A stretch of DNA of 64,000 nt from Acidimicrobiales bacterium (GTDB taxonomy: Bacteria; Actinomycetota; Acidimicrobiia; Acidimicrobiales; Bin134), in the NCBI GenBank assembly GCA_965208785.1, contig OZ242356.1, forward strand, positions 114,202 through 178,201, given 5' to 3'. The stretch's first letter is position 1. Each line of letters begins with the position of its first letter. Shown in pieces: positions 5,302-33,392 of this stretch. Both the position numbers and the translations under genes were made by a program. The notes below the pieces were generated by a model, which saw nothing but the letters and a program-made list of their open reading frames with translations, did not search any database and was not told the DNA's origin.

Positions 5302-7110
5302 CTACTGCTCGATCCAGGTCTCGGTCAAGAACACCCTGCCGCTGAACACCCTCTCGTGCCGCGCTCCGTCGGCAAGAGTGAGGTTGTCAACCCCATGCAC
5401 ATGGTCGTGGGTGGCAAAAAGCCAGTTGGAGTTGTAGAACCAGATGTAGTGGGCGCTCTCGCCGAACGCCCGGTTGATGTCCTCGGCCAGCTCTCTTTGC
5501 CGATCGGGGTCTGTGGTGGTCAGAACTTCGTCGAGTGCGGCGTCAATCGCCGGGTTGTTGATGCGGCCGAAGTTCAGTGCGATTCCCCGGCCGAACTTGC
5601 TGTGCCACCAAACCCGCTCGGCGGCCACGCCGAAGCCCTCGTGCTGGCGCCACAGGAAAGCGGTGAAGTTGCCGAACACCGCGTTGGTGATCAACTCGGC
5701 CTGGTCTACCTGGGTGATGTTCACGTCGAGCCCGCATTCACCCCACATGGTGGCAATCAACTCGGTGCTGAGGAGGTTGGCCGGGTCGTTGGTGGTGCCC
5801 AAATCCACGTTGGTTACGCCCAAGCGGGCAATGGTGGCGCGACCGGCGCCGGGGTCGTAAGCCGGGAATCCGGTGTCGTCCAGATAACCGGGCGTGCCGG
5901 GCGAGAACGGGCCATCGTCCGGAGCCTGTCCATCCCAGCGAAGGGTGCTGTAGGTCTGTCGGTCGGTGCATTGGGCCAGCGCCCGGCGGAACTCCACGTT
6001 GTCGAACGGGGGTCGGGAGTTGTTCAACAACAGGTAGGTGGTTTCAGCGTAGCGATCTTCCTGCCAGAAGGTCTTGAACTCCTCGTTGTAGTCGTCGACT
6101 CTGAGCCCTTCGTTCACACTGCTGGCATCGAGGTCGCCCGACCGAAGCGCGGCATACCGGGCATCGGTATCGGGGATGGGCCGGAAATCAATGCCATCGA
6201 GGTAGGGAAGCTGGCGTCCTTCGGCGTCGGTGCGCCAGTAGTTGGGGTTGCGCACCATCCGGGTTACCTCGTTGTCAATCCACTCGTCCAGCATGAACGG
6301 GCCGGTGCCAATGGGGTTGCGTGCCGCGCCCTCGGCGCCCAAGTCGTGCATCGACGGTGCCCCGAAATAGCCGATATGACTAGTCAAGAGACTGGGCAAG
6401 GCGGCATACGGTCTTCCGAACACCATCTTTATGGACACATCGTCCAAAACCTCGATTGCCTGGAGCTCCCAGTCGCTGACAAAGATGCCGGTGAGAGTGC
6501 CTTTGGCCTGCTCCTCGAAGTGCCGCTTCAGCGCGGCTGCGTCGGCTGGCGACCCGTCGTGGAACTGGAGTCCTGGACGCAGGGTCAGAGTCCACTCGGT
6601 GAAGTCGTCGTTGGAGGTGAAGCTCTCCAGCAGGTTGGGGACTATCCGGCCGTCGTCACCCTCAACGGTCAGGGTGTCGTACAGGGCGCGGAACAGGATG
6701 TGGCCCGACACCGCAGCCTGGGCATTCACCGGGTTCAGGCCGTTGGTGGTCTCGGCTTCCAGCCCCACCACCAGGGTGCCCCCGTACTGGGGCTCCGGCG
6801 CGGCGGGTGGCGCCTCGGTGGCCACCGTCTCGGGCGCCGAGGCGTCCTCTGAAGTGCCCTCGCCTTGCTCGCCGCTACCATCGGTGCTGGGTTGGGCCTC
6901 GCCGTCGCCGTCGCCGCTGGGGGCAGAAGCATCATCTCCGCCCCCCCCCGAGGGCGCCTCGGGTGCGGCGGTCGCCTCAGCCGCCAAACCGCTGCCCCCG
7001 TCATCGTCGTCGTTGTTGCCTCCGCAGGCCGATGCCACCAGCACCAGCGCGCACAGCAGAGCCAGCCACCGCCGCCGAGCTAGCTTCGAGGCCCGACAAG
7101 AATCAGCCAT
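5302..7110 (-). CDS. ABC transporter substrate-binding lipoprotein, family 5 (peptide/nickel)
   Basis: Signal peptide plus lipobox LVASAC, then a long acidic Gly/Asp/Glu/Pro linker, then an SBP-5 body. Confidence 0.9.
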   Translation of the reverse strand: MADSCRASKLARRRWLALLCALVLVASACGGNNDDDDGGSGLAAEATAAPEAPSGGGGDDASAPSGDGDGEAQPSTDGSGEQGEGTSEDASAPETVATEAPPAAPEPQYGGTLVVGLEAETTNGLNPVNAQAAVSGHILFRALYDTLTVEGDDGRIVPNLLESFTSNDDFTEWTLTLRPGLQFHDGSPADAAALKRHFEEQAKGTLTGIFVSDWELQAIEVLDDVSIKMVFGRPYAALPSLLTSHIGYFGAPSMHDLGAEGAARNPIGTGPFMLDEWIDNEVTRMVRNPNYWRTDAEGRQLPYLDGIDFRPIPDTDARYAALRSGDLDASSVNEGLRVDDYNEEFKTFWQEDRYAETTYLLLNNSRPPFDNVEFRRALAQCTDRQTYSTLRWDGQAPDDGPFSPGTPGYLDDTGFPAYDPGAGRATIARLGVTNVDLGTTNDPANLLSTELIATMWGECGLDVNITQVDQAELITNAVFGNFTAFLWRQHEGFGVAAERVWWHSKFGRGIALNFGRINNPAIDAALDEVLTTTDPDRQRELAEDINRAFGESAHYIWFYNSNWLFATHDHVHGVDNLTLADGARHERVFSGRVFLTETWIEQ

Positions 7111-23361: not shown

Positions 23362-25566
23362 TCAGTTGAACACATCGCGGCAGTGAGTCCTGACCGCTTG
23401 GTCTCGGTTGAACTGTCTGGCCAGCGCATTTTGGCAGGCGGCGGACCGGCAGGTTTCTAGGCGCTCCAGCTCTTGGCGGATCGGGGTCCACCCCGACCAC
23501 AGCGCCTCTTGGGCCTGGGCCTCGGCGACGGTGAACGGCTCGGCGGTGTTCCACGGCGCGTCGGGCAGTGTCCACCCCAGCGCAACGAGCACCCGCGCCC
23601 AGTTGCCGGCGTAGCCGGGCCGGTTCTTGTTGTTGTCGTGGTATCGCTTCACGGTCCCGGCGATGTTGCCGCGGGCGGTGCAGACTTGGGGTGTCGGCTG
23701 GTTTCGGGAGTAGTCGGTGACGGGGTCGGCCCGCTCCGGCCACGGCGTCGGGGCCGGGGTCGGCTCGGGGTCCGGCTCCGGCGGGGGGGCGGGCATGGTG
23801 ATCTGAAGCGACGGGCCTTGATCGCCGTGGCCGCTGCCCAAATGGTGGGTGACGGTCCACGAGCCGGGGGCGTTGAACCGCGGGTAGCCGTCGTCGTGGT
23901 AGCGGTACACCTCGAAGGTCTTGGGCTGGTTCCAGTCCGAAGAGTTGAACGAAGTCCAAGCGGCCTGGTGGTTGTGGCCCGACGGCGCCCGCCTCTGGTC
24001 GCGGCACCGCCACAAGCACACGCCCAGCGCCCTCTGCGCGTTGGCCGAAGCGGGCGGGAGCGAAACCCGCGCGTATACCGACACCGGCCCGCCAGGATCG
24101 CGCGAGAGCCTCACGGTGTAGGAGACGGCATCGCCCTCGAACAGCGTCGCGGACGACTCAGAGACCACGATGGCCCGGCTTATGTCGTTGTCGCGCACCC
24201 GCACCGTGGCCGACCCCGCGCTCTGAGACACCCGGTAATCGTCGCCCGGCAACACCTCCAGAGTCACCGAGCCGTCAGGCTCCCACACGTCATCATCAAC
24301 GATGGACACGCCAGCCCACCCCGCAGACGAGAAGGTCCGCCGAACGCCTACTTGGCTGGCGGCTATGAAGTCGCCGCTTTGGCTCCATTGGTATCTGATA
24401 GGCCCGGTGAACCCTGAGGGGCGCTGCAAGTGAACAATGACGCTCTGCCCCTCGGTTTTCTGCTCGTTGCCTGCAAGCAGTCTCACCCCGACCACGGGCC
24501 GGTCATCGACTTCGACTCGGGGTGCCACGACCACGGGCACGCTGAGCCGCCCCCTGGTCGATCCGCTGTCGGACATCGCGACTCTCCCCGCGGCCGACGG
24601 GGCGCCGACGCTGAACGTGAGCGCCGTCGCCTGCTGGGTGACGTTGTTGTCGCCGTCGCGCCGCTCGCGCACCGCCCCCAAAAGCCAGTGCTGCGCGTAC
24701 AGCCTCGCGTTCTGGTGGCCGCTGCCGGCAAGGCTCACGCCGCCCGACAGGCTGAGCCGCGTCCACTGAGGCCCGTCGGCGGTGAACGTCAAAGTGAACT
24801 CGCCGCCCTCGGTCACCATCGGGACACAAGCGTTCCGCCCCGCATACGGGGCGTGCTGCTGGTGGTTGGCAGCCGGGCCGACATAGCGCACCGTGTACGC
24901 CACGCCGTCGCGGCGGGAGCCGGTGAAGGTCAGCGCCCGCTCGCCGCTGCAATCCACAAGCCCCGGAGTCCCGCCCACCACCGGCGTGCCCGCTTTGCTG
25001 ACACCGACAGCCCTGAACTTCAGCGTCGCCGAAGGGTTGCTGTTCCAAGTGGAAGCGGTGACGGAGTAGGTTCTGAAATAAGTGCCGTCGGTGATGCTCC
25101 AGCCGGGCAGGCCCCCGGAGTCCTCGCCGCCCGAAGTCGTGGCGCGAATACCCGCCGTAGCCCTGTTAGCGCCCACGTCGATCACCAGGAAATAGCTGGT
25201 GGTCGCCGCCAGGTCGATGCCGGTGCTCGTGAACGTGAGCACCTGGTCGGAGTTGGAGACGGGGAAGCTGGAGGGGTTGGCCAGGGTGCCCAGCGAGCCG
25301 CCCGGAAACCCGCCCGACGACGAGTGGATGCTGGCGGTCAGATCCGAACTTGAGAGGTCGTTAGTGATATCGGAGAACTCCACTTCGACGCTGCGGAGGC
25401 TGTAGCCCGCGCTGTTGGCGCCGGTCGTGAACCCCTGGGCGTAGTCATTGCCCAAAGACGCGCTGGGTCCGTCTGACTGGCCCAAATTGCCGGTGAAGGT
25501 CAGCGCCGACTGCGCCAAAAGCGGCGACGCCGCCCCCAAACCGGCCGCGGCCACAGCCACAACCAC
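23362..25566 (-). CDS. large secreted protein of unknown family (Calx-beta-like segments)
   Basis: 734-aa ORF with a hydrophobic N-terminus (...AVAAAGLGAASPLLAQS). Contains VSIVDDD and VRVRDND motifs, a Pro-rich linker and a Cys-containing C-terminal domain. The true start likely depends on poly-G tract length (GTG 25636 with 17 or 20 G). Confidence 0.75.
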   Translation of the reverse strand: MVVAVAAAGLGAASPLLAQSALTFTGNLGQSDGPSASLGNDYAQGFTTGANSAGYSLRSVEVEFSDITNDLSSSDLTASIHSSSGGFPGGSLGTLANPSSFPVSNSDQVLTFTSTGIDLAATTSYFLVIDVGANRATAGIRATTSGGEDSGGLPGWSITDGTYFRTYSVTASTWNSNPSATLKFRAVGVSKAGTPVVGGTPGLVDCSGERALTFTGSRRDGVAYTVRYVGPAANHQQHAPYAGRNACVPMVTEGGEFTLTFTADGPQWTRLSLSGGVSLAGSGHQNARLYAQHWLLGAVRERRDGDNNVTQQATALTFSVGAPSAAGRVAMSDSGSTRGRLSVPVVVAPRVEVDDRPVVGVRLLAGNEQKTEGQSVIVHLQRPSGFTGPIRYQWSQSGDFIAASQVGVRRTFSSAGWAGVSIVDDDVWEPDGSVTLEVLPGDDYRVSQSAGSATVRVRDNDISRAIVVSESSATLFEGDAVSYTVRLSRDPGGPVSVYARVSLPPASANAQRALGVCLWRCRDQRRAPSGHNHQAAWTSFNSSDWNQPKTFEVYRYHDDGYPRFNAPGSWTVTHHLGSGHGDQGPSLQITMPAPPPEPDPEPTPAPTPWPERADPVTDYSRNQPTPQVCTARGNIAGTVKRYHDNNKNRPGYAGNWARVLVALGWTLPDAPWNTAEPFTVAEAQAQEALWSGWTPIRQELERLETCRSAACQNALARQFNRDQAVRTHCRDVFN

Positions 25567-25631: not shown

Positions 25632-26066
25632 TTCACAGCACACACCAGCACAGACCGCGCTGCGCCCACCGCGTCCGAGCCCGCCCCCGCGGAAACCCCG
25701 CCCATGCCCACGCCTGTTCCTGCCGTCATTGCTTGCTCCCGTCTCGCGCACCAAGCGCGCACCAACCTGCGCGCATGCTACCACTCCGCGAGCAACACCC
25801 ATTAACCCAAGCCCCCACCCCTGCCCCCGCAAGCCCGCGACCGAGCCGGCGGCGAGGACGCCGCGGCCGGCCGCAGCGGTTCGCGGGCGAGGCCACCGCC
25901 GACGTGCTGACGGGTGAATCTGTCACCGAGTCCCAGTAGCGTCGTCACCGGTCGCGGCTCCGTACCAAGCCGTCCAAGCATCCACCACCGGGCGAGGTGC
26001 GACATGGGATCATTCCCAAGGGAGGCCGATCGCAGGCTCCCGTTCAGCATCGGCGAAGGAGGACTT

Positions 26067-27089
26067 GTGTCTGCTGCCAGAGATGACAGCCAACTCTGGT
26101 CGGTACACAGGGGCGACGCGCTCGACGCCTATGCCGTGTGGCCATCCCCCTCGGCCATAATTTCGGATGGCGCATACGGGGTGGGGGGATTCCCCGGCGA
26201 TCCGCGGACGCCAGAAGATCTGGCCGAATGGTATGCACCCCATGTAGAGGCTTGGTCCAAGCACTCACTGCCATCTTCGACGCTGTGGTTTTGGAATACT
26301 GAGATCGGCTGGGCCACAGTTCATCCAGTCTTGGCTGAATTCGGCTGGGACTATGTTCAAACGATCGTGTGGGACAAGGGCATCGGGCACATCGCAGGCA
26401 ATGTGAATGGGGACACCATCCGCCGCTTTCCGGTGGTAACCGAGGTTTGCGTGCTCTATCGGCGTCGTTTGGAATTCCCGACGCGAGATGGCGTGATGAC
26501 GGCTCGGCAGTGGCTGCGGTATGAGTGGCAGCGGGCGGGTTTGCCCCTTCATCGGGCAAATGAGGCGTGTGGGGTGGCGAACGCCGCCACACGCAAGTAC
26601 CTCACCCAAGACTGGCTCTGGTATTTTCCACCACCTGACATGATGGAACGCCTGGTGTGCTACGCCAACGAGCATGGTATTGCGGCTGGTGCCCCCTATT
26701 ACTCCCTAGACGGTGTCGCGCCGGTCACGGCAGGGGAGTGGGCTGGGATGCGAGACCAGTGGAATCACACGCATGGCCTCACAAACGTGTGGTCAGCACC
26801 GCCGTTGAACGGGCAGGAGCGCTACAAGGGCAACGGGGTTCGCTCGGCGCCGCGCGTGTACAAGCCTGGTCGCAACGCCGCTGTCCACCTCAATCAGAAG
26901 CCACTGGAGTTCATGCGCCGAATCATCAAGGCTGCTACCGAGCCAGACGACGCCGTTTGGGAGCCCTTTGGGGGGCTGTGCAGCGCGGTTGTGGCTGCGG
27001 TGGAGGCCGGGCGACGCGGCTACGCAGCGGAGACGGTGGACCACTTTGCCGACCTGGCCATTGAGCGCCTCAGATCTGCTGAATCCTGA
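26067..27089 (+). CDS. beta-class N6/N4 DNA methyltransferase-like protein with atypical motif IV
   Basis: N-terminal IISDGAYG sits where DPPY is expected. NQKPLEFMRRII and the AdoMet motif VWEPFGGLCS are near the C-terminus. GAAGGAGG ribosome-binding site lies 6 nt before GTG 26067. Confidence 0.75.
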   Translation: MSAARDDSQLWSVHRGDALDAYAVWPSPSAIISDGAYGVGGFPGDPRTPEDLAEWYAPHVEAWSKHSLPSSTLWFWNTEIGWATVHPVLAEFGWDYVQTIVWDKGIGHIAGNVNGDTIRRFPVVTEVCVLYRRRLEFPTRDGVMTARQWLRYEWQRAGLPLHRANEACGVANAATRKYLTQDWLWYFPPPDMMERLVCYANEHGIAAGAPYYSLDGVAPVTAGEWAGMRDQWNHTHGLTNVWSAPPLNGQERYKGNGVRSAPRVYKPGRNAAVHLNQKPLEFMRRIIKAATEPDDAVWEPFGGLCSAVVAAVEAGRRGYAAETVDHFADLAIERLRSAES

Positions 27090-27171
27090 CTACGCTCCAA
27101 GCTCGATGAACAACCCGCCGACGCACCAATCTGTACCGCTTTGACCGCCAAGCGCAGACATTTCCTGATGT

Positions 27172-27193
27172 GCTGTTCCGACGCAGGAACAGC
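27172..27193 (+). terminator. hairpin downstream of the methyltransferase gene
   Basis: GCTGTTCC-gacgca-GGAACAGC, a perfect 8-bp stem. No clear U-tract. Confidence 0.35.
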
Positions 27194-27412
27194 TCTGGTG
27201 GCGTCACATTCGCGAAACCGAGCAAGATCCCTCCATTGAATCACCCGCCCACGCTTCTCCATACATGGGCCGGGACAACACCTCCGATTTGCGCCATCGG
27301 AAGGGGGCGAGCCCATTTCGCCTCTCGCATGGGCAGGAGCCGGGCGACGATCTGGAGGGAGAAGAAGCGCTGCGGGCCGGCGCAGTCGATGGTCACCCCC
27401 ACCGTCCGCAAC

Positions 27413-28687
27413 CTAAGCGCCGAGCAGCGCTGCGGGGATGACTCCGATGCCGTCTCGGCGGCGGTAGGCCTCGTTGCCGGTGCTGATGACTGCGGCGTCG
27501 AGCAGGTTGTCGCCGATCCGGTCCGCCAGCCAGCGCAGGTGCCGGACATCGTCGTCGACGACGGCGGCAGCGAGCTTGACTTCCAGCGCGACGACGCTGC
27601 CGTCGCGTCGTTCGACGATCAGGTCCACTTCCTGTTCGCCGCCGCGGGTGCGCAGATGCGAGACGCGCGCTCGCGAGGCTTGCGCGTAGACGCGCACCGA
27701 TTGGGCCACGAGCGACTCGAACAGGTGGCCCAGCAGCGTGCCGTCGCGTTGGGTTGCCTGCGGTGTGGCTATGCCGTCGAGCAGGGCCTCGGCGCCGATG
27801 CCCAAGCTGCTCATGGCGAGCGCGGGGTCGGCGAGATGGTGCTTGGGCGATGCCGCCAAGCGGCGCAGGCGGCTGCGGGTGGGCAGCCAGGCCGGCAGTT
27901 CCTCGACGATCCACATCTGCTCCATGACCCGCCGGTATACGGCGACGGTGGCCATCGACGGCGGGTCGCCGGCGCCGGGTGTGGCTGCGTCGCGTATCGA
28001 GGTGTAGGCGGCGGTCGTTGCGGTTGCGGCGGCGAATGCCTCCAGCCAGCGTCGCAGCGATGCGCGGTCTCGCACGCCGGTGCCGAGCTCGTCGATGTCG
28101 TGCTCCACGACGCGGTCGAGGTAGCTGCCGATCTGGCGTTCCCGTAGGCCCCGGTCGAGTTCGCGGATGGCGGGAAAGCCTGACCGCTCGATCTCCAGCG
28201 CATAATCGGAGAGCTTCATGGCCGAGCGGCCTGCCAATGGGGGCCGGCTGCCGCTCAGCAGTTCGGCCAGGCTGACCGTCGGTTCTGTGATGCCTCGTTC
28301 TGCCAGTGACATCGGGCGCATCCGCAGTGTGACCATACGGCCGGCGCCCGAGTGCGTCGGCCGCGTCGCCGGAGCGGCTGAGCCGGTGAGCAGGAAGCGC
28401 GCCGTGCCAGGATCAGCGTCGACGCGGCGCCGGACCATGTCCCACGAGTCGGGATAGCGCTGCCATTCGTCGATCAGAATCGGGGGGCGGCCAGCGAGCA
28501 GGCGCTCGGGATCGCCCCGCACGACGGCCAGTTGCCTGCCGTCGTCGAGTCGGTGAACCGTGCGAGCGCGCCGCAGGGCCGTCTCAGTCTTGCCCACAGC
28601 ACGCGGCCCCTCGATGACCACCGCAGGCAGGCCGCCGGCGAGCATGTCCAGCTCCGTGTCCACGATGCGAGGCAGATATGCATCCAC
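27413..28687 (-). CDS. AAA ATPase with C-terminal PD-(D/E)xK-like domain (COG1373 / DUF4143 type)
   Basis: Walker A GPRAVGKT, Walker B ILIDEWQ, and C-terminal EVDLIVE...ALEVK. GTG start at 28687. Confidence 0.85.
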   Translation of the reverse strand: MDAYLPRIVDTELDMLAGGLPAVVIEGPRAVGKTETALRRARTVHRLDDGRQLAVVRGDPERLLAGRPPILIDEWQRYPDSWDMVRRRVDADPGTARFLLTGSAAPATRPTHSGAGRMVTLRMRPMSLAERGITEPTVSLAELLSGSRPPLAGRSAMKLSDYALEIERSGFPAIRELDRGLRERQIGSYLDRVVEHDIDELGTGVRDRASLRRWLEAFAAATATTAAYTSIRDAATPGAGDPPSMATVAVYRRVMEQMWIVEELPAWLPTRSRLRRLAASPKHHLADPALAMSSLGIGAEALLDGIATPQATQRDGTLLGHLFESLVAQSVRVYAQASRARVSHLRTRGGEQEVDLIVERRDGSVVALEVKLAAAVVDDDVRHLRWLADRIGDNLLDAAVISTGNEAYRRRDGIGVIPAALLGA

Positions 28688-28690
28688 GCT

Positions 28691-28759
28691 GGCAAGTCTA
28701 CGTATCGGACGGCTCGAACTATGCGAATCGGACGGTCCCAGCTATATGGATCGGACAGT
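28691..28759 (-). repeat. three 23-bp-phased direct repeats directly upstream of the ATPase gene (array A)
   Basis: Core ATCGGAC(G/A)G on the + strand at 28704, 28727 and 28750. The proximal unit carries TAGACT 7 nt before GTG 28687. Confidence 0.9.
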
Positions 28760-28929
28760 ATGGCTGCGAAGCGGGCCGCGTTCTTGGAGGCATCGGATCG
28801 GCTGCGGCAGACGCGGTCGCCCCGACCGAGCATCGCTAGTCCATCCTGACGCCGGCCGACTGCACACGGACACGGTAACGGGCCACCCTGCTTCAACAAC
28901 TCGAGCCGGCGCGGTAGCGGGTGCGCCGG

Positions 28930-29055
28930 TTAGGACCACAGGGTGCTGATGGGAAGGGCCCATAATGCCCGCGGCCCGACTATCGACACGGCGGGAAGCT
29001 CAGCGAGATACTCGGCGATGAGTGGATCTACCAACCGCTTGCGGTAAGTGCTCAC
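28930..29055 (-). pseudogene. 5' fragment of a second DUF4143-type ATPase gene
   Basis: VSTYRKRLVDPLIAEYLAELPAVSIVGPRA aligns with DAYLPRIVDTELDMLAGGLPAVVIEGPRA of the intact gene. Similarity is lost inside Walker A and the frame stops 12 codons later. Confidence 0.7.
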
Positions 29056-29062
29056 CGCACCA

Positions 29063-29131
29063 TACTACCGATTTTCGACACCCAGGAATGCTGATTTTCG
29101 ACACCCTATGATGTCGGTTTTCGACACCCAA
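29063..29131 (-). repeat. three 23-bp-phased direct repeats directly upstream of the ATPase pseudogene (array B)
   Basis: Core TTTTCGACACCC on the + strand at 29072, 29095 and 29118. The proximal unit carries TAGTAT 6 nt before GTG 29055. Confidence 0.9.
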
Positions 29132-29199
29132 GACACCCCGTTGCCGACAGCACATGAGTCGACACCACTGAGCTTCCCATCCCAGATTCCCGCGAAGGC

Positions 29200-29553
29200 T
29201 CAATAAAGGTTCAGACGACCATCCTCGAACCGGGCCGCCATTTCGATCTGAGCACCTCCGACTCCTTCATCGCGCACGCCTCCATCAAGGGTGCCGTCGG
29301 CAAACATGTCGTGAATGATTCCAGCCGCGGTGATTACCACTCGGTTGCCCGCCTGCTCATTGCGCTCGATGTGGCCCTTCAGCGGTCCCCGGTACACCTG
29401 CCACACCCCGCGTAGGTCAGGGGCGCCGTCGGACAGCGGCTCGTCGCAACCGGCCAGCACCAGCGGCGGCCACTCCCGCCACCGACCGGGGGGCGTTCGG
29501 ACAATCGGCAAGTCGACCGCCTTGGTGGTCGCCGACTCGAGATTCGCCGCCAA
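29200..29553 (-). CDS. hypothetical protein
   Basis: 117-aa protein-like ORF (DLRGVWQVYRGPLKGHIERNEQAGNRVVITAAGIIHDMF). No family recognised. Confidence 0.5.
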   Translation of the reverse strand: MAANLESATTKAVDLPIVRTPPGRWREWPPLVLAGCDEPLSDGAPDLRGVWQVYRGPLKGHIERNEQAGNRVVITAAGIIHDMFADGTLDGGVRDEGVGGAQIEMAARFEDGRLNLY

Positions 29554-29803
29554 CTCCGGCAGGAGGTAGTGCTCGCTTCCGACCGGGGTCCGGTCACGGG
29601 TGACGCCGCACCCGAAGCGGTGCCGCCGCCATTGAACCCAGAGCCTTCACCACATCGCCTATTCGCATCGCCGACTCCCCAAATCAATCGCGTTCAACAC
29701 TGGCATTAGATATTGGCATCAATACTGGCCGAGGTGGGCGGCGATCGCGACGGCAACCCCAGTGTCGCTGTCGAAGTGCTCTGGCATCTGTGGGAGAACC
29801 GGG

Positions 29804-30220
29804 TTAGAGGGCTGCGTCGATGCACTGCACCGGGCCGTCCCAGGCCAGCATGTCTCTGTCCAAGGTGAGCAGCGGGCACTCCTGGACAAGCGCGGTGGCC
29901 AGGATGAACCGGTCTGCGGTGTCATTGGTGGCCAGTCCCAGTTCCCCCAGTCGAGCGGCCTGCTCCGCTTCCAGCGACCCAAGAGGCAGGTCTCTGATCC
30001 CCGCGGCTGCCATTCGCAGCCGGAGAAGAGTCACGTTGGCCTCTACGGCCAACCGCCGTTTGGCTTGCAGCAGGGCCAGTTCCCAGTAGGTGATGGCGCT
30101 GACCACTGCCTCGCCTCGTCGAGACGCACGGTCAACGCGTTGGATGGTCTGGGCCCCGAGTTTGCCGTCAGCCAGCCCCCAGCAGAAGCGGAGCACCACG
30201 TTTGTATCGAGTAGCAGCAT
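29804..30220 (-). CDS. vapC: PIN-domain toxin
   Basis: Begins MLLLDTNVVL and contains ...TADRFILATA...LLTLDRD. TGATG overlap with the upstream antitoxin. Confidence 0.85.
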   Translation of the reverse strand: MLLLDTNVVLRFCWGLADGKLGAQTIQRVDRASRRGEAVVSAITYWELALLQAKRRLAVEANVTLLRLRMAAAGIRDLPLGSLEAEQAARLGELGLATNDTADRFILATALVQECPLLTLDRDMLAWDGPVQCIDAAL

Positions 30221-30561
30221 CAGCCATCAGGCTCAGACGGGCCGACAACGAGGCTGGGCTCTTTCTCGTCCCAGCTGGCGAGGATCTCGTTGACCACCTC
30301 CTCATGGCTGGGCGATACGTCCGCTTCGTCGAAATCGAACCCATCGGGTAGCGAGATGATGTCCCGGCAAAAGCCGAATAGCGACCCGGAGTATTCGGCG
30401 AGGGGTGATCGGGGTGGTCGAACCTCAGCCACTGGCCGCCCGTTCTTGGTTATGACGATTTCTTGACCGTCCCTCACCGCCTCCAAGAGCGGGCCGCAAT
30501 TGGCCCGGAACTCGCTGACCGGCACAGTGACCGCTGAAACGGGATCTTTGGCAAGCGCCAT
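30220..30561 (-). CDS. Phd/YefM-type antitoxin
   Basis: Contains VPVSEFRANCGPLLEAVRDGQEIVITKNGRPVAEV. Confidence 0.8.
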   Translation of the reverse strand: MALAKDPVSAVTVPVSEFRANCGPLLEAVRDGQEIVITKNGRPVAEVRPPRSPLAEYSGSLFGFCRDIISLPDGFDFDEADVSPSHEEVVNEILASWDEKEPSLVVGPSEPDG

Positions 30562-30589
30562 TGGGTCAGGCTAGCTGCTTTGCTAATTA

Positions 30590-30605
30590 TGTACAACAAC
30601 GTACA
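30590..30605 (-). promoter_or_regulatory. palindromic operator candidate TGTAC-N6-GTACA upstream of the antitoxin
   Basis: Read directly. Overlaps an ATAATT/CATAAT -10-like hexamer on the minus strand. Confidence 0.45.
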
Positions 30606-30668
30606 GAATAGTTTGATGACAGAAGGTTGCACGCCTACTCCCAGTTGGTTCTCGGTACCTTGATACGT

Positions 30669-33392
30669 ATGGCTTCGGCTGACCACCTCGATCAAATCGA
30701 CTCGGCGCTTCGCAACGACATCAGGCGGCTGGGCAACCAGCTCGGCGATGCCCTGGTGCGACAGCACGGCCCTGAGTTGCTGGAGCGCGTCGAACAAGTG
30801 CGGGCCATGGCCCGGGGACTGCGACGCGACGAGGAGTCGGGAGCGGCCCTGGCCGAGGTGCTCGACGATGTGGATGTGGTGGAGGCCATCCGCCTGGTAA
30901 GGGCGTTCACGGTCTACTTTCACCTGGCTAACACCGCCGAGCAGGTCCACCGCATTGAGGATCTCAACGCCGGTGGCCTTGTCGGCAGCCTCCGCTTCGC
31001 TGACACGGTGGCCAAGCTCCGAGACCTTGGCATCGATGCGGCTGAGATTGTGGCCGCCACCCGAGGTGCCGACCTTCGCCCGGTGTTCACCGCTCATCCC
31101 ACCGAGGCTTCCCGCCGGTCGATTCTCGACAAGCTGAACGAGATCGCCGTTCTCATTGAGCGTCGCAGCGAGACCGGCGGCGGGCCGGCCGGCCGGGGCC
31201 GGATCGATCGCCGCGTCGACGAGCTCATCGACGCCATCTGGCAAACCGACGAGCTTCGCCGGGAGCGGCCCGATCCTGTTGACGAGGCCCGCTCCATCCT
31301 CTACTTCCTCACCGAGATCGCCGCTGACGGGGTGCCCGAGCTGTTCGACGACGTCGATGCTGTGTTGCGATCGATCGGGGGCTCGCTGGACGGGCCCCAG
31401 GTGCCGGTGCGGTTCGGGTCGTGGGTGGGCGGCGATCGCGATGGCAACCCCAATGTCACCCCCGAGACAACGCTGGAGGTGCTGGCCTTTCAGCGGGGAC
31501 GGGCGCTGCGCCTGCTGGTGGCCGAGGTGGAAGAGTTGTCGTCGGAACTGTCGGTTAGCACCGCCGTTACCGCCATCACCCCTGAATTGCAGGCCCAGAT
31601 CGAAGCCGACCGCGACGACTTTCCCGACGTGGTGTCCCGATTCAGCAAGTTGAGCGCCGGCGAGCCCTACCGGCAGCGCTGTTCGGTGATTCACCAGCGC
31701 CTGTTGGAAGCCGCCGCCCAGCCTCCCGGACCGAGGGCCTATGGGTCGCCCGCCGACATGGAGGCCGACCTGGCCGCCATGGCCCGCTCGCTCGAAGTCA
31801 ACGGGGGATCGCTGATGGCCAGCGGCCGCTTGGCCCGGGTCCGGCGGATCCTGGCCATGGTCGGATTCCACCTCGCCACCCTCGACATCCGCGAGAACGC
31901 CGCGGCCCACCACGAGGCATTGGCGGAGCTGTTCGCCGAGTTGGGCACCGAATACCTGGCGCTCTCCCGTTCGGACCGCACCGCGCTGTTGGCCGCCGAA
32001 CTGGAAAGCCGCCGGCCCCTGGCCCCTCCCGCGGGGTCGAGCGCCCAGGGCTCTCTGGCTCTGTTCGCGGCCCTGCGAAAAGCCTTCGACCGCCACGGCG
32101 ACGGCGTGATCGAGAGCTACATCGTCTCCATGACCCACGGCGTTGACGACGTGCTGGCCCCCGCGGTGCTGGCCCGCGAGGTCGGCCTGGTGGACATCCC
32201 CGGAGGCGTCGCCCGAATTGGCTTCGTGCCGCTATTCGAGACCATCGACGACCTCCGGGGGATCGGGCCCATGCTCCGGGAGCTGTTGGCCGCACCCGCC
32301 TACCGTCGCCTGGTGCAGCTCAGGGGCAACAGGCAAGAGGTGATGGTCGGCTACTCCGACTCCAACAAGGACGGCGGCATCACCACCTCGCAGTGGGAGA
32401 TCCACAAGGCGCTGCGGGAGATCGCCGAGGTCTCGGCCGAGACCGGAATCAAGGTGGTTGTGTTCCACGGCCGGGGCGGCACCGTGGGGCGAGGGGGCGG
32501 GCCCACCAACGCGGCCATCTTGTCGCAACCAGCCGGGGTGGTGGCCGGAGCGATGAAGATCACCGAGCAGGGCGAGGTGATCGCCGACAAGTACGGCCTG
32601 CCCCGCCTGGCCCAGCGCAACCTGGATCTCGCCCTGTCGGCGGTGCTGGAGGCCACTCTCGCCCACCAGAGCCCCCGTCACGGCCGCGGCGGCATCGATG
32701 CCTGGAACGATGTCATGGAACTCATGTCGACCAGCGCCTATCAGGCGTACCGCAGCTTGCTCGACACCCCCGGCTTTGTGGAGTACTTCCAGGCCTCGAC
32801 CCCCGTAGAAGAGCTGACCGCCATGAACATCGGCTCCCGACCGGCTCATCGTTCGGGATCAAAGGCTGGCATCGACGATCTCCGAGCCATCCCCTGGGTG
32901 TTCGGGTGGACCCAGTCGCGGCAGATCATCCCCGGCTGGTTCGGGGTGGGCACGGCTCTGGCTGCGGTTGACGAGGCCGGCAGCGAAGAACTGCTCCCGG
33001 CCATGTACGAAGGCTGGCAGTTCTTTCGCACGTTTGTCTCCAACGTGGAGATGACTTTGGTCAAGACCGATCTGGCCATTGCCGGGCACTATGTCAATCG
33101 CCTCGTCGCCCCTGAACTCCATCACTTCTTCAACACAATTGTTGAAGAGCACGATCTCACCGTCGCCCACATCGCCAAGCTGACCGGCGGCGAACTGCTC
33201 GGCGATCTTCCGGTGCTCAAGCGGACCTTGGCCGTTCGTGATGCCTACCTCGACCCCATAAGCGTGCTGCAAGCAGAACTGCTGGCCCGTTCGCGGGCCA
33301 AACTGGGCTTGCAAGATGACAGCCGTCGCATTCAGCGGGCCCTCCTGCTGACCGTGAATGGAGTCGCCGCCGGCATGCGCAACACCGGCTGA
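30669..33392 (+). CDS. ppc: phosphoenolpyruvate carboxylase
   Basis: VGYSDSNKDGG signature, C-terminal ...MRNTG. About 907 aa from MASADHLDQ. Confidence 0.95.
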   Translation: MASADHLDQIDSALRNDIRRLGNQLGDALVRQHGPELLERVEQVRAMARGLRRDEESGAALAEVLDDVDVVEAIRLVRAFTVYFHLANTAEQVHRIEDLNAGGLVGSLRFADTVAKLRDLGIDAAEIVAATRGADLRPVFTAHPTEASRRSILDKLNEIAVLIERRSETGGGPAGRGRIDRRVDELIDAIWQTDELRRERPDPVDEARSILYFLTEIAADGVPELFDDVDAVLRSIGGSLDGPQVPVRFGSWVGGDRDGNPNVTPETTLEVLAFQRGRALRLLVAEVEELSSELSVSTAVTAITPELQAQIEADRDDFPDVVSRFSKLSAGEPYRQRCSVIHQRLLEAAAQPPGPRAYGSPADMEADLAAMARSLEVNGGSLMASGRLARVRRILAMVGFHLATLDIRENAAAHHEALAELFAELGTEYLALSRSDRTALLAAELESRRPLAPPAGSSAQGSLALFAALRKAFDRHGDGVIESYIVSMTHGVDDVLAPAVLAREVGLVDIPGGVARIGFVPLFETIDDLRGIGPMLRELLAAPAYRRLVQLRGNRQEVMVGYSDSNKDGGITTSQWEIHKALREIAEVSAETGIKVVVFHGRGGTVGRGGGPTNAAILSQPAGVVAGAMKITEQGEVIADKYGLPRLAQRNLDLALSAVLEATLAHQSPRHGRGGIDAWNDVMELMSTSAYQAYRSLLDTPGFVEYFQASTPVEELTAMNIGSRPAHRSGSKAGIDDLRAIPWVFGWTQSRQIIPGWFGVGTALAAVDEAGSEELLPAMYEGWQFFRTFVSNVEMTLVKTDLAIAGHYVNRLVAPELHHFFNTIVEEHDLTVAHIAKLTGGELLGDLPVLKRTLAVRDAYLDPISVLQAELLARSRAKLGLQDDSRRIQRALLLTVNGVAAGMRNTG

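Follow-up and report, generated by a model that had tools for sequence, protein, structure and literature searches.

The ATPase gene of the DUF4143 type found in a 64,000-nucleotide stretch of an Acidimicrobiales bacterium genome (contig OZ242356.1; hereafter the window) is preceded by a tandem array of 23-bp direct repeats. Our analysis suggests that the ATPase probably binds these repeats head-to-tail over its own promoter and controls its own synthesis. Recognition of the repeats by the product of the gene is strongly supported by sequence comparisons, as particular amino acids of the protein vary together with particular bases of the repeats, a sign that each protein reads the array in front of its own gene. 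Repression, as the form that this control would take, is inferred from the position of the repeats only.

The intact ATPase gene occupies positions 27413–28687 on the minus strand (424 amino acids plus the stop codon) and starts with the GTG at 28687. The array in front of it (array A) is composed of three units on the same strand: the distal unit 1, ACTGTCCGATCCATATAGCTGGG (28737–28759), unit 2, ACCGTCCGATTCGCATAGTTCGA (28714–28736), and the proximal unit 3, GCCGTCCGATACGTAGACTTGCC (28691–28713). These units are contiguous from 28759 to 28691 and end 3 nt ahead of the start codon. Unit 3 carries CCGTCC as the first of two conserved blocks (block 1), and its second block (block 2) includes TAGACT (28695–28700, minus strand), a TAnnnT hexamer resembling a −10 element, which is followed after 7 nt by the GTG. 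A second array (array B) is located on the minus strand at 29131–29109, 29108–29086 and 29085–29063, and each of its three 23-bp units contains the core GGGTGTCGAAAA. It ends 7 nt ahead of the GTG at 29055, and its −10-like hexamer, TAGTAT (29062–29067, minus strand), stands 6 nt before that start codon. The exact 12-mer GGGTGTCGAAAA occurs three times, all within array B.

A sliding 46-nt comparison at lag 23 was performed over the whole 64-kb window. Array A matched at 31 of 46 positions and array B at 34 of 46, while no other site reached 26; the third-ranked site (24/46) was located within a permease-like coding region. Tandem Repeats Finder called a period of 23 for both arrays. A sequence-only reading of the window had reported two triplets of 23-bp direct repeats with −10 hexamers 6–7 nt before the starts; the triplets were confirmed as the two strongest lag-23 stretches of the window, and the hexamers lie where that reading placed them. 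The Rfam scan of positions 26000–32000 matched nothing at E values up to 1. No match to the sigma-70 consensus was obtained at either array, as expected of promoters without a −35 element.

Relatives of the ATPase were identified by scanning a genome collection, from which the best 80 of 562 (54–88% identity) were kept. These loci span Acidimicrobiia, Vicinamibacterales, Gemmatimonadota, Chloroflexota, Gammaproteobacteria, Pseudonocardia, Solirubrobacterales and others, and are mostly chromosomal. When the 100 nt upstream of the genes were compared with themselves at lags of 15 to 35, the best lag was exactly 23 in 76 of 77 loci, as against 2 of 77 for control stretches under the same test. 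The mean upstream match was 0.52 at lag 23 and 0.43 at lag 46, compared with approximately 0.25 at other lags. Tandem Repeats Finder detected arrays in the −150 to 0 stretches of 40 of 79 loci, every one with a period of 23, over a background of 0.011 arrays per 150 nt for any period of 18–27.

The unit consensus was derived from an iteratively refined weight matrix, whose registers are imperfect in divergent loci, and reads n-C-C-G-T-C-[C/G]-A-A-w-y-n-G-T-A-G-n-n-T-A-n-n-n. Block 1, CCGTC[C/G], covers positions 2–7 and block 2, G-T-A-n-n-n-T, covers positions 13–19, so that the blocks are about one helical turn apart. The arrays usually contain 2–5 units, with a range of 2 to about 15; the longest, in locus L033, consists of approximately 15 tandem 23-bp units from −367 to −26 relative to the gene start. 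The matrix identified 185 matches in gene orientation and one reversed match in the −160 to 0 stretches (about 13 kb in total), and only 156 matches on both strands of the remaining 663 kb. A second or inverted array, or unit-like sequence, past the stop codon was not convincingly found (7 weak matches against about 3 expected). At approximately +541 in the coding sequence of about 16 loci (for example, L010, L014 and L019), an opposite-strand matrix match coincides with the codons of a conserved QLDGY motif and is probably explained by coding constraint, less probably by an operator within the gene.

The repeats were also observed outside this set. Neighbouring, more divergent paralogues own 23-bp arrays of other sequences, and paralogues within one genome differ in unit sequence, as do arrays A and B in the window, which agrees with the paralogue-specific sequence described in the sequence-only reading. 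Among distant homologues from plasmids and from records named 'Bacteriophage sp.' (25–56% identity), arrays were present in 14 of 14. The period was 23 in Prosthecochloris, Collinsella, Bacteroides, Spartinivicinus, Microvirga, Rhizobium and four faecal contigs, and 22 in Agrobacterium, Sphingomonas, Sulfitobacter and Thermus. In the B clade, whose members are about 35% identical to the ATPase behind array A, there were 3–7 units per array. Comparable repeats upstream of homologues, for which the sequence-only reading had proposed a search, therefore recur in the main set, the distant homologues, the B clade and the neighbouring paralogues. Neither the phasing of 23 bp nor the short core of array B is in itself diagnostic of the DUF4143 family, since a metagenome scan for the array-B core at 23-bp spacing returned 34 matches, of which 2 precede DUF4143 genes and 32 lie in unrelated contexts. 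Several of the metagenome loci (L098–L103, L124, L119 and L125, among others) carry long 23-bp-spaced arrays with a GTGTCGAAAA core away from DUF4143 genes; these arrays are probably iterons of other replicons. An IMG/VR scan detected no relatives, and the subfamily is nearly absent from phage records (5 of 50,697).

Covariation between single columns of the protein alignment and single positions of the unit was calculated over 70 loci as normalised mutual information (nMI) with a robust z score. The strongest signal linked unit position 7 to residue 348, with an nMI of 0.98 and a z of 23, while the next best column reached 0.46. Arginine or lysine at 348 was paired with C in 37 of 37 cases, histidine or glutamine with G in 22 of 22 and alanine with A in 3 of 3; serine and glycine were mixed. 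Residue 348 sits in the motif H-L-R-T-X-G-G-E-x-E353-V-D355; in the window, codons 344–355 (HLRTRGGEQEVD; 27623–27658, minus strand) encode this loop into the catalytic E353 and D355, and R348 is the residue that covaries almost perfectly with position 7. Unit position 12 was linked to residue 245 of the motif KPA[K/R]xTT (nMI 0.62, z 15), where lysine was found with G (31/37), arginine with T (19/21) and methionine with C (7/7). The adjoining residue 246 tracked positions 15 and 16, threonine or serine being found with A-G (z 9). Both residues are encoded within codons 242–257 (PPSMATVAVYRRVMEQ; 27917–27964, minus strand), at the start of a predicted winged-helix-like recognition helix. Lastly, positions 4–5 were linked to residue 275 of TRNRL[R]RL, with arginine accompanying GT in 51 of 54 cases (z 10–12).

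These pairings were then placed against the phylogeny. On a neighbour-joining tree, a minimum of 11 changes was counted at position 7 and of 21 at residue 348. For the main pairs, those of residues 348, 245 and 275, none of 2000 characters simulated on the tree came up to the nMI of the real data. No domain was prominent in region-level protein–DNA mutual information, and the signal was seen only at single columns. Two out-of-sample loci fitted the pairing rules: the Prosthecochloris locus L081 (H348, K245, S275) carries TGGCGAAAcGGTAG, and L042Y (Q348, R245) has G at position 7 plus TGTAG. In a blind test, predictions for five proteins were set before the DNA was fetched, and DNA was obtained for four of them (all but P0146, with R348). 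L148 (K348) carried GCCAAAnGGTA, while its close relative L150 (H348) carried GCGAAAnGGTA, both matching the prediction. The sequence-only reading had suggested a dedicated regulator, possibly the ATPase itself, and the residue–base covariation, together with blind predictions that were partly successful, points to the ATPase in that role.

The ATPase matched Pfam AAA_14 (E 7.5e-13, 49.1 bits against a gathering cut-off of 27) and DUF4143 (E 8.7e-26, 91 bits against 28.1), with no Rep-type initiator or other Pfam family detected, and it matched the PADLOC PDC-S01 model PDLC04790 over its full length (residues 1–422, E 5.8e-80). The NCBIfam search matched nothing and a PDB sequence search returned P-loop noise only. 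As Y4, P6 and R7 are invariant in alignment A1, the conserved N-terminus supports the GTG at 28687 as the start. Walker A (G27–T34) and Walker B (D73–E74) motifs are present. Residues G27, G32, K33, D73, E74, E353, D355 and E369 are invariant in all three alignments, while K371 shows the same invariance in A1 and A2 and a conservation of at least 90% among the 139 sequences of A3.

An AlphaFold2 model was built from the 139-sequence alignment, which includes the B clade (predicted local distance difference test score, pLDDT, 92; predicted template modelling score 0.93); it replaced an earlier model from 14 sequences that was unusable (pLDDT 48.7). The DSSP assignment of the model suggests an AAA+ core at about residues 1–125, followed by a lid and a helical region. 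A helix-helix-helix-beta segment (208–266) appears winged-helix-like, and an alpha-beta-beta-beta-alpha-beta domain at 318–424, predicted to be of the PD-(D/E)XK type, carries E353, D355, E369 and K371. Foldseek retrieved the archaeal AAA+ ATPases 2qen (E 9e-6) and 2fna (E 2e-4), and next clamp loaders and origin recognition complex (ORC)/Cdc6 proteins including 2qby (E 8e-4), all with template modelling scores of only 0.27–0.38. The covarying residues fall in two places of the protein: 245 and 246, in the winged-helix-like segment, track block 2, and 348, in the loop by the nuclease site, tracks block 1. This distribution matches the two-block unit.

The position of the repeats relative to the start codon was also conserved. 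In 47 of 75 loci, an in-frame start codon was located 6–8 nt past the proximal TAnnnT, a spacing expected of leaderless transcripts, which the sequence-only reading had suggested for both arrays. In Gammaproteobacteria, Bacteroides and Chlorobi, the array is followed by a leader of 30–60 nt. If transcription begins at the start codon, the proximal unit would span about −25 to −3 and block 2 of the next unit would lie at about −36 to −30, the position of a −35 element; for array A, unit 2 would cover about −48 to −26 from the putative transcription start. Distal units in several clades lack TAnnnT (GAGCGT or CACAAT is found instead), yet keep G13, A15 and T19, which demonstrates that block 2 is conserved beyond promoter function. 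A reading of the units as tandem promoters was rejected on the same ground. A second candidate, an extracytoplasmic function sigma factor promoter formed by CGTC and GAAAC, was rejected because the spacing is 14 nt, not 16–17.

In the proposed mechanism, the 23-bp repeats would serve as operator units for the protein encoded by the adjacent gene, and each unit would be occupied by one protomer of this AAA+/winged-helix-like/PD-(D/E)XK protein. The loop before the nuclease site (348), together with residue 275, would read block 1, while the start of the winged-helix-like helix (245 and 246) would read block 2. Protomers would follow one another head-to-tail every 23 bp, approximately 2.2 helical turns apart. 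Given that the proximal block 2 would form the −10 hexamer of a mostly leaderless promoter and that the next block 2 would lie at the −35 position, occupancy should exclude RNA polymerase and keep the protein at a low, self-limited level (autorepression).

Several observations weigh against this proposal or narrow it. The covariation shows recognition, not repression. In the blind test, L149 (Q348) carried the predicted G at position 7 while a sub-rule for position 8 failed, and L151 (K348, R245, A275) had a degenerate array in which the prediction was unmet. The winged-helix assignment derives from the secondary-structure pattern of the model, with no domain-level structural match. The sampled homologues are all bacterial. 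Finally, the nuclease residues are invariant, which repression alone does not explain, so the repeats may have a further role.

This last point leads to the strongest alternative, in which the protein does bind the repeats but the array is mainly a docking, assembly or cleavage site for the ATPase-nuclease. The array could, for example, be a scaffold for an oligomer that stays inactive until infection, the site of a self-targeting cut (abortive infection) or the cis end of a selfish mobile module. We consider this explanation possible but distinctly less probable than autoregulation. In its favour, the invariant E353, D355, E369 and K371 lie only 5–23 residues from the base-reading residue 348, the number of units varies from 2 to 15, and the genes sit among restriction-modification and toxin-antitoxin genes. 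The limits of the DNA shared between relatives also fit. Proteins 91–96% identical to the window ATPase occur in quite different genomic contexts, and the array plus the open reading frame (ORF) is the sole DNA common to such relatives. In blastn comparisons with seven relatives (77–96% nucleotide identity over the gene), upstream similarity never extended past the first base of the distal unit (28759) and halted inside the array in four of the seven, while downstream similarity ended at the stop codon (27412–27422). These limits also speak for the operator proposal, as they leave no other evident candidate for the binder. Inside the array, the core is conserved, whereas the remaining positions change more quickly than the coding sequence. 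When the window is compared with L087, unit 3 agrees in all 23 positions and unit 2 in 16 of 23, with 95.6% identity over the gene.

Remnants composed of an array and a few 5′ codons, which recur beside intact copies, have likewise been counted for a role in docking or cleavage. On the strength of the active site next to 348, the similarity breaks at the array and stop codon and the recurrent remnants, one may tentatively picture the array and gene as a self-contained module, whose site-specific ATPase-nuclease recognises, and may nick or cut, the repeats at the 5′ edge of its own gene; we regard this picture as rather unlikely. Against the docking explanation, the proximal unit always overlaps the −10 element, which would be needless for a pure docking site, and there is no second, inverted array at the other end of the gene. 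Neither an empty site nor a target duplication was found, and the contigs that carry the PIN gene of the window all share one arrangement. In addition, in the one phage assay published for this group, a PDC-S01 gene did not protect against T4, T5 or T7 (10.1101/2024.09.26.614923).

The ORF behind array B offers a closer view of such a remnant. It comprises 41 codons (28930–29055, minus strand), of which the first 30 are fused in frame to the last 11 and the stop codon of a B-type DUF4143 gene. The remnant matched positions 2–31 of the family hidden Markov model (E 5e-4). Its first 30 codons showed 85% identity to residues 4–30 of the full-length paralogue L120 (E 1.4e-8), and its last 11 codons plus stop aligned with the C-terminus of L120. 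As both ends match L120, the ORF is explained as a module that lost its interior in frame rather than just its 3′ end, and the 'truncated paralogue' of the sequence-only reading is corrected accordingly. The junction, near 28965, shows GGGCA microhomology, and about residues 31–398 have been deleted. B-type arrays also precede the full-length paralogues L120, L093 and L136, the first two of which were recovered by the metagenome scan for the array-B core.

Further remnants were noted in the collected loci. A repeat array with only the first 12, 16 or 50 DUF4143 codons lies near an intact copy in three loci: L038, where it stands about 2620 nt ahead of the gene, L042 (about 1650 nt ahead) and L037 (minus strand, about 5494–5643). 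In L038, the remnant shares 97% identity with the corresponding array and 5′ end of the intact copy, which is 2.6 kb distant. Short 5′ remnants of this kind are more frequent than would be expected from random deletion.

Two further explanations are far less probable than docking or cleavage, and to about the same degree. The first holds that another host-encoded transcription factor or a nucleoid protein binds the repeats, the ATPase being merely the regulated gene. Direct-repeat operators for unlinked regulators do exist. However, a host factor would have to accommodate unit sequences that differ between paralogues of one genome and a module that is present in many phyla without a conserved neighbour, and the bases vary together with residues of the very ATPase to an extent far above the tree-based null. 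Across the 80 loci, no conserved neighbour gene was detected, the sole recurrent neighbour being another DUF4143 paralogue.

The second, which we also consider very improbable, is that the repeats are a known transposon terminus (Tn7- or Mu-like, with several transposase sites of about 22 bp) or plasmid-type replication iterons. The length and phasing of the repeats resemble both, the AAA+ ATPase and PD-(D/E)XK nuclease recall TnsC and TnsA, and the metagenome matches that share the short core often form long arrays resembling iterons. Nevertheless, an inverted array at the other end is lacking, the 80 loci share no neighbouring transposase or Rep gene, and in most genomes the locus is chromosomal. 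There is no AT-rich unwinding region, the lowest G+C content over 100 nt near the arrays being 52%, and the protein matches no Pfam family besides AAA_14 and DUF4143. A known mobile-element terminus, which the sequence-only reading had raised as a competing explanation, does not account for the repeats: the far end of the gene has no inverted copy, the neighbourhood has no conserved transposase, and Rfam gave no match. The idea that the repeats are functionless products of chance or neutral slippage, to which the variable copy number might point, can be practically dismissed, as period, position, orientation and two-block pattern are the same in different phyla and at protein identities as low as 25%, and the core of the unit is conserved although its other positions outpace the coding sequence in divergence.

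In the window, the ATPase gene is surrounded by genes for an N6/N4 DNA methyltransferase, a PIN/Phd toxin-antitoxin pair and phosphoenolpyruvate carboxylase. A terminator-like hairpin, identified as a consensus match only, is located at 27370–27385 (minus strand), about 30 nt past the ATPase stop codon. Close relatives of the ATPase are annotated in metagenome-assembled genomes of Acidimicrobiia. Population variants of the same locus differ by indels at 27130–27290 and 29536–29732, the latter segment being missing from L146 and L147. L145 carries about 0.9 kb of extra sequence between the ATPase and methyltransferase genes, including a 266-amino-acid ORF that was lost from the window in three deletions and may encode the restriction enzyme that partners the methylase. 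Just upstream of array B, a 117-amino-acid ORF (29200–29553, minus strand), the counterpart of which is called as 155 amino acids in L145, had no match in Pfam, PADLOC or NCBIfam. A 734-amino-acid ORF with a choice-of-anchor R domain (23362–25566, minus strand; NCBIfam E 1.3e-23) is unrelated to the repeats.

Elsewhere, family members directly adjoin genes for HsdR (type I restriction), NotI with a methylase, Mrr, and BrnT and PIN toxins (L150, from 1702 onward; L142 and L143, 1–1430; L139, 3981–5994). These restriction-modification and toxin neighbours fit the description of PDC-S01 as embedded in defence loci. PDC-S01 (AAA_14 plus DUF4143; COG1373) is an ATPase fused to a PD-(D/E)XK domain, and DUF4143/PDC-S01 has been reported as the fourth most common defence-type gene in prokaryotes, with approximately 39,000 instances in one survey (PMC12988326). 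It was proposed as a candidate defence gene by 'guilt by embedding' (10.1101/2024.01.29.577857), while DUF4143 has been placed among the PD-(D/E)XK families of unknown function (PMC3424549). In the literature searched, no description was found of upstream repeats, DNA recognition or autoregulation in the DUF4143/PDC-S01 family, in line with the sequence-only reading, which knew of none.

A conserved candidate self-operator with a partly readable protein–DNA code provides the first concrete, testable handle on DUF4143 proteins. It implies that members of the family may be sequence-specific DNA binders with a predictable recognition surface (residues 245, 246, 275 and 348) and with targets that are readable in genome sequences. 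The proteins probably limit their own expression, and this may be relevant to the negative result of the heterologous defence test. The apparent participation of a PD-(D/E)XK domain with an intact active site in reading the operator raises the question of when it cuts and what. If the module does cut its own repeats, the array could be more than an operator and act as a cis element through which the module is copied or moved, or as a self-targeting suicide switch on infection.

Plasmid iterons and their Rep initiators, such as RepA of pPS10, pi of R6K and TrfA of RK2, are the closest parallel in layout. In both cases, tandem direct repeats in the range of about 17–23 bp (here 23), spaced about two helical turns apart, adjoin the gene of the binder (here a putative one), which controls its own promoter (here putatively), and paralogues carry orthogonal repeat sequences. 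The systems differ in that the candidate binder here is an AAA+/winged-helix-like/PD-(D/E)XK protein and not a WH1-WH2 Rep protein, that there is no AT-rich unwinding element or replicon context, and that the repeats themselves carry the −10 element.

Partition and maintenance arrays, as in R1 ParR-parC and the omega system of pSM19035, combine cooperative binding with autorepression. As in these systems, a short direct-repeat array overlaps the promoter of the operon encoding the (here putative) binder. Their units are 7–11 bp long, whereas those described here are 23 bp, and their binder is a small ribbon-helix-helix protein, whereas the present one is a large ATPase-nuclease encoded in a single-gene module.

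The archaeal Orc1/Cdc6 proteins on origin recognition boxes (PDB 2qby) offer a parallel in the mode of reading. The ATPase of the window appears to be an AAA+ protein of the initiator/clamp-loader type, judging by the Foldseek match given above, and a site of approximately 22 bp would likewise be read by two separate parts of one protomer. Here, however, the second reader is apparently a nuclease-like domain in place of the AAA+ initiator-specific motif, and the protein has an extra PD-(D/E)XK domain with an intact active site. Lastly, the sites are arranged head-to-tail over a promoter, while those of Orc1/Cdc6 are inverted around an origin.

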